Positions 36,001 through 39,000 of a stretch of DNA of 60,442 bases are shown one piece after another. Position numbers: made by a program. This stretch comes from a virus (lineage: Duplodnaviria > Heunggongvirae > Uroviricota > Caudoviricetes), in IMG/VR virus record IMGVR_UViG_2660238269_000009. One strand, 5' to 3'. Numbering within the stretch: position 1 is the first letter of the stretch; the number at the start of each line of letters is the position of its first letter.

Positions 36001-39000
36001 TCCAGAAATACGTTGTGTCCCCGCAAATCCACGGTACCGCTGATGCGCTGCCTCCTGTGCTCTGTGATGCCAGACCGGCAAGCTCCGTTCTGAACTGATT
36101 CACCATCGCACTAAACAGCCCCGGATGCTGCGCATGCGTCCCCACTGCCGCATCACCTTCTCCCTGCATCCACACCACCGCAAGCAGACGGTTTTTCGGG
36201 TTCTTCGCCAGTGCGGCTTTAGTCCGGCTCACCAAATCCTGATACAGCGGCTTACCCACACCCCAGCGCAGTGAATTTTCCGATGCACCGGCTGATTCGC
36301 TGTATGTGCCGTCTGCACCCGTTGTGAATGCCGAAGCACCACGGCAGCACGGAACCAGCAGAATGCCCGCATTCGCCGGTATAAACGGCAGCAGTTTTTT
36401 GGCGATATGCAGCCCCTGCCCCACGGTTCCGTACTGCCCCTTTGACAGGTCCGCTTTCGGATGGTTAAGACGGCTCATGTCCTGCACATCATGCAGACAA
36501 TGGTCCGCCGGAATAATGTCGTTATACTTACAGGCGGCACCGCCCGGTGTCACCGTACTGCGGCGCGCCAGCTGCTTAATACGCGGGTCCGGACGGTCAT
36601 ATGTCTCCGGCAGCGGAAGGCCTTCACCATACGACATGCCGTTTGACTGCCCTGCCAGAACCACAACAAAGTAATACTCCGGGTCGCTGGTGGCGCTGAT
36701 TACTGTGCCTTCTCCATCCGACGGCTTCACCACCACAGGTGTGGTGACATCACCTTCCGCCGCAATGGCCTGCATCAGGGTATAAGGCGTGATGGCGACA
36801 GGGCTGCCAAATGGCTGCCACCCCTCCTTCAGTTTTTGAGTCAGTCGCTCCGCAAGGTCTGACGGCGACGCCGCCCTGACCACATCGTAGTGTTTAAATG
36901 CCATGGTTCTTTCCACCATATTAAAAACAATTCTTTAAAATACCTGACATGCAATACAGAAAAAAAACACAAAACCATACCTTAAATGAAAACCTCATCA
37001 TAAAGCAGGTATGCATGGATAAACCACATCAGAAAAATAATTCTGCTCTATGGTTTACATTCAAAATTATCATTTATACTTTTCAGAACATCACCAGCAC
37101 AGCATAAATAAGGAGGCTAAATGAAGTGGATTGTGATTGATACAGTTATCCAGCCATCATGCGGAATATCTTTTTCAGCCATATGGAGTAAAATAAAATT
37201 AATAATCTGGTATCAATCGGATGTTTTCTTACCTCCTGAAAGTATATTTACGTTGACTCACACAGGTATCGTACTTAATAACAAAGTGCTACCTGTAACC
37301 ATTTACAACGTTGTACCATTCAATAAAAGATTCTGGGATTTAATCAAAAACAGCCAGGAATGTCCTGCAAATTCAGATAACGTATTGAAAGAATGCTTTA
37401 ATAATCATTGCATTCTGCAAATATGCCCTTACGGACTAAAACAACAGTGTCCATAATTAGTTTACTCATATCTTACAAAATTCATATAAAAGCCCCTCCG
37501 GAGAGGGGCTAAAGCCGCGTATCTGTATCATCATGCGCATGATGCCGGGTGCCTCCCGGTGAGTTCAGCCCGGTGCCACCAAACCCGCGCGTTTACTTTC
37601 CTGGGTATCAAAGATAACACCTAATGCACCAGTCGCCCCTCCGCTCAGGGGGATTCACCATGCCTGTTTCTTTTAACAAACTCCCCGCAAAACAGACAAC
37701 TGTCAACCGTCTGAATTGTGAGACATTTAAAATTTTCGGGGCATGACTGATACCCGGCTAACTACCTGGCATGTCCTTTTTCACCAAAGGAAAAAGCACC
37801 ACCACAATACCGACCACCAGCACTCCATCCGCCAGCACCGACATGATCCTGCTGGTGAAATCCACCATCACCACCAGAAACAGCAGGAGTGCCACAGCGG
37901 CCAGACGCAGTTTTACCGTCACAGGTGGTTCTCCAGTCGCAGGCCAAGAACACCAGCAATCTCTTCCAGAACCTTACGCTCTTCCGGCTCAATTTCACCA
38001 TCTGCTTCAGCAATGGCCACCGCCACATCCAGCACATCTTCCGCTTCACGCGTATCGTGTTTCACATCTTCAATTTCACGCAACGCCGCTCGACGACCAA
38101 TTTTAAAGTTGGTGTCAAGCTGACCTGTGATCGTGGCACTGATGGCATTAATTTCTGACGTAAACGCGGACAACGCAGGCTGGTTACGTAATACCTGTTC
38201 GATCTTCGCTTTCTCTGAAGCCTCACATTCACCATCTGCATAGGCCACCAGATAGGCAGCATTAATAACCGCCTGTGCCAGATCACGTTTCTCAAACTTT
38301 TTAATTTCCGCTGCCGCTCTGCGGGTTTTCTTTTTGAAAATACCAAACATCGTGACGTTCCTTTGGGTGGGTGAGCCAACGCCCGGGAGCGATCTGCCCA
38401 CAGAGAAAGTCACACTGACCACTCCGTAAGCTCCCCCCGAAAGGCTCTGTGGTTGATATGCGCCGGGCGTGGCGCGGAAATAAAAAAGGCTCGCAGTAGC
38501 GAGCCCCAGAAACAACAAAAATACAGTGAAAACTAAAGAGGGCCGCAGAGCAACCCTTTTTTAGTTAAAATAGATGGTAAAAAACGATTCCAGTGAATTT
38601 ATTTACACTTATTGTCAGAAAAAAGGGAAACCACCGATTCCTGACTGATCATTTCTTCTTCGCTCACCCTGGTAATTGCAACTAAATCCTGAAGAGGCAG
38701 ACCAAAAACATCCAACAATTCTTTTTTCAAAAGAATTCCATTCTCATGCAATAAGTTGATTAACTTATAGATGAATTGTGGCTCCTCTTTTGCAATCACA
38801 TCATCAAGAGGCTCACGGCGACGATATGGTGCTAATTGCCTAAAGACATAACTTTTTTGATTCTCTGTCATAAGGCTTAACGAATAAGCTCGATGCGTCA
38901 TACAGGCCAAAGAAACTAACCATCTCTCCTTCAGTCTTTTGAGTGCAGATATATTGGGAGAGTAATATTCCCTTCCAAAGGTTTGAGCTGGAAGCAAAAA

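Follow-up and report, generated by a model that had tools for sequence, protein, structure and literature searches.

Positions 37758-38350 of a 60,442-nucleotide (nt) stretch of DNA from a virus of the Caudoviricetes (IMG/VR record IMGVR_UViG_2660238269_000009; the window in what follows) carry on the minus strand a two-gene unit, tciA-tciB, in which the gene of a TerB-family protein is directly followed by that of a small hydrophobic peptide. As a gene pair, tciA-tciB is already known and annotated as an accessory pair of phage P1 and of lambdoid prophages. Less ordinary than the pair itself is the RNA that precedes it, a conserved structured leader that appears to control tciAB and other phage cargo genes. 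The reading that we favour, by a modest balance of belief, is that tciAB is a lambdoid late-cargo operon in which the coupled TciB docks an amphitropic TciA and the two together guard the inner membrane.

The preliminary description of this DNA proposed a GTGA overlap of the two genes, a GTG start for the second and a GGAGA ribosome-binding site within the 3' end of the first, and direct reading of the sequence showed that it was right in every detail (junction CTGGAGAACCACCTGTGA). It also implied that the small frame, which encodes the 54-amino-acid (aa) peptide MTVKLRLAAVALLLFLVVMVDFTSRIMSVLADGVLVVGIVVVLFPLVKKDMPGS, was a novel and unannotated gene. This part does not hold, as the peptide has a Pfam family, a PHROG entry, a RefSeq annotation and homology to P1 tciA-tciB. 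For tciA the 143-aa form is taken as the gene because the homologues all begin at MFG and RefSeq annotates 143 aa. The 199-aa TerB open reading frame (ORF) that the ORF finder started at a TTG at 38518 was rejected, since it would cross a terminator and the conserved leader.

The assignment of TciA to the TerB family was borne out by Pfam TerB (PF05099; 61.2 bits against a cut-off of 24.4, E=1.4e-16, residues 26-138), by PHROG 632 ('tellurite resistance'; E=1.8e-69 over the full length) and by a phmmer match to the solved TerB structure (PDB 2JXU, E=1e-7). DUF533 scored 24.2 bits in the Pfam scan, which is sub-threshold. The AlphaFold2 model of TciA is a seven-helix bundle (predicted local distance difference test, pLDDT, 86.3; predicted template modeling score, pTM, 0.81), and the best match of this model in Foldseek was 2H5N (PG1108; probability 1.0, TM-score 0.55-0.64), followed by the COG3793 tellurite-resistance protein 2OU3. 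On this model TciA would be a soluble protein with an all-helical TerB-like fold. The first 22 residues (net charge +7, hydrophobic moment 0.5-0.57) form an amphipathic helix, and the remainder is an acidic helical bundle. The protein contains two acidic ADGxxxxxE motifs, of which D39, G40, E46 and E124 are invariant and D117 and G118 nearly so among 13 distant homologues; D117, G118 and E124 are also invariant in a 26-sequence set. The paired ADG...E motifs of the TerB family are its proposed metal site.

TciB matches Pfam DUF3927 (PF13064) with 59.5 bits (cut-off 25, E=3.2e-16) and PHROG 1470 ('TciB-like') with E=1.4e-24. Its earlier characterization as a strongly hydrophobic peptide with two hydrophobic segments agrees with a grand average of hydropathy of 1.58 and with two hydrophobic maxima that are separated by DFTSR. 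Residues R6, D21, F22, S29 and D33 are invariant. The basic residues at both ends suggest an N-in/C-in arrangement, and judged from its sequence TciB is probably a hairpin in the inner membrane.

Conservation of the coupled frame was examined in 26 genome loci encoding TerB relatives and in several phages. A tblastn search of the phage collection with the 54-aa peptide gave no matches, for which the low-complexity filter is the probable reason, and the TerB protein was used as query handle for this collection instead. In all ten E. coli contexts tciB directly follows the TerB gene, and a TciB-like hydrophobic ORF of 50-57 aa with the shared motif follows it in about 20 other lineages. These include bacterial hosts (Franconibacter, Pantoea, Pseudescherichia, "Enterobacter pulveris", Serratia, Symbiopectobacterium, Pectobacterium, Citrobacter, Enterobacter, Oceanisphaera and a Bilophila metagenome-assembled genome) and the phages JLK-2012, CharmingMan, P1, P7 and the N4-like Salmonella phage SP-076. 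The check that had been proposed for the small frame thus finds it kept in place downstream of TerB across genera and phages, in every locus where a close relative of TerB is encoded. In all these cases the TciB start overlaps or abuts the TerB stop, as GTGA, ATGA, TAATG, TGATG or adjacent codons. The GGAGA motif is not conserved (GGAAAA in locus L006, nothing obvious in P1). Because the stop-start contact is the feature that is kept while the Shine-Dalgarno (SD)-like motif is not, the comparison points to coupling of tciA and tciB by termination-reinitiation.

Selection acts on both genes: over 48 unsaturated pairs (Nei-Gojobori) the median dN/dS is 0.05 in TciA and 0.23 in TciB. The profile matches, the conserved position and the dN/dS of about 0.23 establish tciB as a real gene under purifying selection. 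In E. coli the locus is common: in a megablast search 1385 of 5426 complete genomes matched, at a median of two places per genome, and both genes are annotated in RefSeq. Viral contigs searched with a diverse TerB alignment returned only copies that are 97-100% identical. Among 1.84 billion representative proteins the family forms only 51 clusters at 50% identity, all of small proteins except one chimeric ORF. The apparent fusions P0124 and P0186 (TerB with DUF3927) and P0251 (176 aa) were discarded as frameshifted or chimeric ORFs.

The small partner can be exchanged. In Pseudomonas phage AF and in P. juntendi the TerB gene is followed by an unrelated small protein with one N-terminal transmembrane segment and the tail C.WYGYQTER...GWVPR (about 1950-2140 of locus L033 for phage AF, where it is unannotated, and 3441-3644 of L015 for P. 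juntendi). In the Erwinia jumbo phage ChrisDB, TerB is followed by a 59-aa ORF with two hydrophobic segments and without the DFTS motif. Since these partners differ from TciB, a TerB protein with a tiny membrane partner is a recurring design in which the partners are replaceable. Within the tciAB family, too, the two genes have separate histories. P1 and P7 share 31% identity in TciA and 83% in TciB, and loci L006 and L021 share 43% and 80%, respectively, while between P7 and the Serratia locus L013 the values are 91% for TciA and 31% for TciB; over 231 pairs the identities of the two proteins correlate with r=0.47. The TciA and TciB subtypes therefore recombine independently (P1/P7, loci L002/L004; L006; L013; L021), and the gene junction is a recombination point.

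The leader that precedes tciA (Table 1) is more conserved than the TciA protein and is near-identical before both TciA subtypes, which have 42% aa identity; a diverged form precedes the jumbo-phage TerB gene. RNAalifold on 30 sequences recovered hairpin P0 and helix P1, with compensatory changes present. For P0, P1, H and PK together, 95.8% of the cells are paired and eight pairs show double changes, which was reached by none of 500 shuffles, and sliding the strands by 1-3 columns lowered pairing to 37-48%. A second set, in which Pa and P3 are combined with pairing between the H 3' arm and the SD-AUG spacer, has 90.3% paired cells (35-48% after sliding by 1-3 columns). Many of the sequences in this alignment are close relatives. 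Helix PK does not covary within the main set, and its 3' strand was fixed in the search pattern, which is an ascertainment bias; in a second clade of leaders PK is changed in a compensatory way, from GAGCCAG/CTGGCTC to GAGCCTG/CAGGCTC. The covariance-model alignment of this clade (A4) was too inconsistent for pair counts and explicit helix tables were used. The fold of the single sequence is not more stable than that of shuffles (z = -1.05), so it is covariation that carries the case for structure.

Two leader folds can be considered, one with P1 and H and the other with a long PK+P3 hairpin. In full they are mutually exclusive, and their core energies are -24.3 and -30.9 kcal/mol. The existence of exclusive folds of similar energy suggests that the leader is a two-state translational switch. 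In the P1+H fold the ribosome-binding region would stay free, while in the PK+P3 fold the 3' arm of H would be liberated to pair between SD and AUG; the balance could be set by a ligand, by temperature, by a protein or by a small RNA (sRNA). The G-run in the 5' strand of PK (38437-38432) varies: GGGGTG is common, a T-to-G change has made it six G in the window, and 11-12 G are present in the viral contigs L077 and L148. Such variation could come from strand slippage and weaken PK, or it could be an artefact of sequencing.

The leader is also found away from tciAB. A covariance model detected 51 further copies in a metagenome sample. Among them are those of the second clade (27-48 bits), located before other phage genes that were assigned by eye as Rha-type regulators, a T5orf172-like 162-aa protein and others; the gene of a secreted NMT1/TAXI-like binding protein has a further variant in front of it. 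Such variant copies are from metagenomic and viral contigs. Three loci carry two leader copies each, with the second, diverged copy in the same prophage at 5469-5598 in L021, 8221-8350 in L431 and 4447-4576 in L438; the one in L021 is located 3' of the lysis cassette, before an accessory ORF of about 250 aa. A search with the pattern CTCTRVGG..GGCTCACC gave almost entirely chance matches and one real distant copy, in L262. Searched against Rfam with a 191-nt query, the leader core matched nothing at E<=10, and partial terminator-like matches were confined to 38476-38520; no family matched the leader at E<=0.1 over 5.6 kb, nor the second-clade copies. The leader is not a Pas sRNA, because PasA and PasC lie between esterase and holin and PasD/STnc100 lies 3' of the cargo. 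It is conceivable, and we propose it tentatively with somewhat less belief than doubt, that tciAB and many unrelated phage accessory genes stand under a new class of bistable pseudoknot leaders that marks the starts of cargo cassettes in enterobacterial phages.

Similarity to other prophages and genera starts at the terminator hairpin 38507-38486 (at 38505) and continues through tciB into the gene of the sRNA STnc100. Upstream of rmrT of the neighbouring RosmerTA defence system, 37 nt at 40440-40476 (minus strand) repeat part of the module's 5' edge (T-run of the terminator, P0 hairpin and ATATCAA), corresponding to 38453-38489 (minus strand). By these direct repeats RosmerTA is bracketed, and it looks inserted between P0 and P1 of a leader, which suggests that the element serves as a recombination point or as a boundary of cassettes. 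In PPompW-type prophages (L484 3501-3546, phage PPompW_132418, and related Stx2a-phage records) the IS110-family insertion sequence ISEc20 cuts the leader after nt 48; the cargo and lysis region is missing there, and the terminase genes come after the insertion sequence. In L380 an apparent Rha-family gene is preceded by a second-clade leader, and about 1.4 kb upstream of this leader there is an isrJ sRNA gene (2508-2581, minus strand; Rfam, 64.6 bits). This arrangement echoes the antirepressor locus isrK-anrP-isrJ of Gifsy-1.

Table 1. Position of tciAB, its leader RNA and adjoining features in the window
Feature	Position	Strand	Basis or remark
tciA, 143-aa TerB-family gene	37919..38350	minus	ATG 38350 to TGA 37921-37919; RefSeq WP_001380362.1
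tciB, 54-aa DUF3927 gene	37758..37922	minus	GTG 37922-37920 to TAG 37758; RefSeq WP_000216624.1
GTGA shared by tciA stop (TGA) and tciB start (GTG)	37919..37922	minus	direct sequence reading
GGAGA, SD-like, within tciA 3' end	37930..37934	minus	7 nt 5' of tciB GTG
AAGGA, SD of tciA	38359..38363	minus	8 nt 5' of ATG; AAAGGAA in leader alignment, conserved
Structured 5' leader RNA of tciA, conserved, about 130 nt	38351..38480	minus	alignment, covariation, covariance model
Leader helix P0	38475-71/38464-60	minus	
Leader helix Pa (P0 loop with bases just 5' of PK 3' strand)	38469-63/38386-80	minus	at least six versions: CGCCCGG/CCGGGCG; CGCTCGG/CTGAGCG; GGCTCGG/CTGAGCC; GTGCC/GGCAC; TCGCA/TGCGA; TCTCAC/GTGAGA
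Leader helix P1	38452-45/38405-398	minus	versions: CCACAGAG/CTCTGTGG; CCACAA/TTGTGG; CCGTAGAG/CTCTACGG; TCCTCAGAG/CTCTGAGGG; TCCCGAG/CTCGGGG
Leader helix PK	38437-30/38376-69	minus	
Leader helix P3	38425-17/38394-86	minus	
Leader hairpin H	38420-16/38412-08	minus	
Leader strand between SD and AUG, able to pair with H 3' arm	38356-52	minus	versions of H 3' arm/SD-AUG spacer: GTGAC/GTCAC; TTCGTC/GACGAA; AGTGTTT/AAATACT
Intrinsic-terminator-like hairpin with T-run, directly 5' of leader	38486..38507	minus	terminator scan; 5' edge of conserved module
Second terminator-like hairpin, end of upstream RosmerTA cassette	38539..38557	minus	terminator scan
RosmerTA, directly upstream: RmrT, and RmrA split as helix-turn-helix (HTH) ORF (111 aa) and M78-peptidase ORF (263 aa)	39749-40354, 39414-39749, 38599-39390	minus	PADLOC
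STnc100 sRNA gene	37480..37692	minus	Rfam RF02076, 139.4 bits against gathering score 47; 66 nt 3' of tciB
STnc100 terminator	37510-37491	minus	terminator scan
111-aa ORF between STnc100 and nanS-p	37121-37456	plus	RefSeq anti-adapter protein IraM; no Pfam match

The window is a lambdoid prophage of E. coli. Its query region of 961 bp matches E. coli 2013C-3181 at 100% identity, and the adjoining 1.8 kb are 99.95% identical. On the minus strand the order of genes starts with Q, a MazF-family toxin gene, a DNA methyltransferase, tRNA genes for Ile, Arg and Arg, two small ORFs, RmrT-RmrA (RosmerTA) and two terminators. Then follow the leader, tciA-tciB, STnc100, IraM on the other strand, the NanS-p esterase, holin, lysozyme and Rz. 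The PADLOC matches to RmrT (E=2e-17) and RmrA (E=1e-73) are strong. The split of RmrA is caused by a 1-nt indel in an A-run relative to 2013C-3181, where RefSeq has a single 353-aa coding sequence over both parts, and RmrA in the window is either a pseudogene or affected by a sequencing error. In the ten other E. coli contexts the pair is found at this place too, with cargo on the Q side of it and the lysis cassette on the other; what differs is the upstream cargo (TfpB, methyltransferase, ParE/HTH or type I restriction-modification). In phage JLK-2012 it comes directly after Q and the tRNA genes, and in lambdoid prophages it is found 0.5-3 kb upstream of the holin gene.

No credible sigma-70 promoter was found between 38350 and 38620 at consensus or relaxed thresholds. 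From this and from the two terminators upstream we infer that transcription of tciAB is late and Q-dependent. The same mode of transcription, late and dependent on Q, applies to stx2. In Stx2 phages STnc100 is encoded 75 nt downstream of stx2 (PMC12370729). Since STnc100 follows tciB in the way it follows stx2, tciAB sits in the stx slot. STnc100 may be a 3'-UTR-type RNA of whichever cargo occupies this slot.

In the model that we favour for tciAB, ribosomes that end tciA would reinitiate on tciB, by which both products are made together, and the pair would be transcribed by Q-modified polymerase mainly in lytic growth, with the structured leader gating its translation. TciB could then serve as the membrane docking site for the amphitropic TerB protein, and the TciA-TciB complex would stabilise the inner membrane, or keep watch on it, in cells that are infected or lysogenic. 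Insults against which it might guard are entry of DNA from a superinfecting phage, pore-forming colicins, and oxyanion or metal stress. The TerB-TerC unit of the ter operon would be a parallel to such a model. Lytic N4-like phages have the pair and jumbo phages a variant of it, which agrees with a function in the course of infection. Of the preliminary description, which saw here a two-component membrane-stress or exclusion module, the two-gene unit stands as a conserved pair; the functional label stays an interpretation, for which no convincing PADLOC model was found.

Several observations weigh against the membrane-guard model. Experiments on the function of TciA or TciB were not found in the literature searched. 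In PADLOC-DB 2.0 the best match of TciA was PDC-S48 with E=0.0021 over only 35 residues, which is unconvincing, and TciB had none; the strong matches of the neighbouring genes to RmrT and RmrA indicate that the search works. A CRISPR interference (CRISPRi) screen of P1 found tciABC to be non-essential, which fits an accessory role and is silent on function. The TerB homologues of Vibrio phage K481 and of Brucella have no small partner, and a natural TerB-TciB fusion was not found among the 1.84 billion representative proteins. The reshuffling of subtypes argues against a tightly co-evolved interface between TciA and TciB: any interface has to be built from the invariant residues, unless the two are linked more loosely than in a fixed complex. 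Failure to match a promoter is weak evidence that none exists, and expression in the lysogen is possible.

Four other functions can be considered. In the first, tciAB is an abortive-infection or defence pair with TciB as a small pore-forming or depolarising effector and TciA as a TerB-type sensor or inhibitor, released when superinfection disturbs the membrane. The cargo hotspot, with RosmerTA, ParE/HTH toxin-antitoxin, type I restriction-modification and methyltransferase genes nearby, would suit such a pair, and so would the very hydrophobic TciB with its two segments and conserved intramembrane Asp residues. TerB domains also occur in Shango and Bunzi, and the TerB-like protein of Dionysus acts with a membrane pore-former (bioRxiv 10.1101/2025.09.30.679545). 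Nevertheless, we consider this explanation unlikely, in view of the unconvincing PADLOC result and of the apparent location of the pair in a late transcript, not behind a lysogenic promoter. Moreover, tciAB is present in strictly lytic N4-like phages, with a variant in jumbo phages, where a system that protects the host makes little sense.

The same distribution, in lytic N4-like as well as temperate phages and with a TerB-plus-small-partner variant in jumbo phages, would suit a counter-defence or infection-support factor. In that case the TerB mimic and its anchor would block or buffer membrane surveillance by the host, or would keep the membrane energised until lysis. Hosts do employ TerB proteins for defence, and in lambdoid phages the pair is part of the late operon, just before the lysis genes. 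The proposal is, however, purely inferential, and the P1 CRISPRi screen shows no requirement on the laboratory host; we regard it as improbable.

Closeness to the lysis genes in lambdoid prophages also raises the option that the pair is an antiholin-like regulator that times lysis by the adjacent holin-endolysin cassette; in size, TciB resembles small holins with two transmembrane segments. This is quite improbable: in P1 and P7 the pair adjoins tRNA genes and ban, and the annotations of SP-076 and of the jumbo phage show no lysis gene in its vicinity. The Pfam scan gave DUF3927 alone for TciB and no holin family, and the class II holin of the prophage is annotated elsewhere.

That tciAB is a genuine determinant of tellurite or metal resistance, as the product name suggests, is the least likely of the functional options and hardly credible. 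It agrees with the TerB-family membership and the conserved acidic motifs, but in 2013C-3181 the annotation shows no terC, terD, terE or terZ within 20 kb to either side, nor does that of the ten other E. coli contexts, and the name in P1 rests on homology. Constructs for which tellurite resistance has been published contain terBCDEF or more genes, and not just terB (PMC11003894). Finally, the small frame might have been a chance ORF or annotation artefact, being short, GTG-initiated and rich in hydrophobic codons, but this is refuted by the comparative data: there are Pfam and PHROG matches, the other frames are not conserved, and frame, position and motif are kept across genera even though synonymous sites are near saturation (proportion of synonymous differences, pS, 0.44-0.9; dN/dS about 0.23).

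The tciAB pair deserves attention as a very common prophage cargo, located in the slot that holds stx in Stx phages and common to P1 and lytic N4-like phages. Knowledge of its function would explain a widespread cargo and could tie the TerB family to a minimal, easily tested two-protein membrane system. If confirmed, the leader would represent a new class of cis-regulatory RNA that acts on phage accessory genes, and could serve as a practical marker of the boundaries of cargo cassettes in enterobacterial prophages. Together, the leader and a late guard composed of a TerB protein and a membrane hairpin, in temperate and lytic phages, would, if true, constitute a new regulatory layer for cargo at the stx slot.

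The closest known relatives of the window locus are tciA-tciB-tciC of P1 (AF234172) and terB-upf69.4-upf69.6 of P7, where, as in the window, a TerB gene of about 141-144 aa has its stop in contact with the start of a 54-aa DUF3927 gene. TciA of the window is 42% identical to the P1 protein and 52% to that of P7, and TciB is 43% identical. The motif VDFTS..SVL.DG is common to P1 TciB and the window peptide, and both loci are flanked by phage tRNA genes. Differences are that P1 and P7 have a third gene, tciC (35 aa), which is missing in the window, that their pair adjoins tRNA genes and ban whereas the window pair occupies a lambdoid late cargo slot, and that the structured leader of the window is not found in P1 and P7. 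No ORF is present 3' of tciB in the window, and phmmer with TciC against the window ORFs and 166 loci matched P1 and P7 alone. In the P1 record the tci names were assigned 'by homology'. Reviews and surveys of P1-like phage-plasmids repeat this homology-based name, and one describes the operon as variable and often lost.

TerB of the ter operon terZABCDE(F), which is associated with tellurite resistance, phage inhibition and colicin resistance, belongs to the same Pfam family and has the same fold (PDB 2JXU) as TciA. It was reported to be the inner-membrane partner of the integral membrane protein TerC (PMC11003894). However, TerC is a multi-pass protein that is unrelated to the 54-aa TciB hairpin. 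The defence systems Shango, Bunzi and Dionysus contain TerB proteins, which have been called amphitropic and for which a role in membrane surveillance was proposed (bioRxiv 10.1101/2025.09.30.679545). SngA of Shango, BnzA of Bunzi and DinB of Dionysus, the latter with the membrane proteins DinA and DinC, resemble tciAB in that a TerB-like protein is encoded alongside membrane proteins within mobile regions of defence or cargo genes. Beside tciAB, however, the defining partner genes of these systems are absent, and tciAB also occurs in lytic phages. In Shango the partner genes encode a helicase and an ATPase. In E. coli DjlA and YebE/DUF533 a TerB-like bundle is tethered to the inner membrane by a transmembrane segment of its own. 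In those cases anchor and bundle are parts of one protein, whereas in tciAB the presumed anchor is a separate, translationally coupled peptide.

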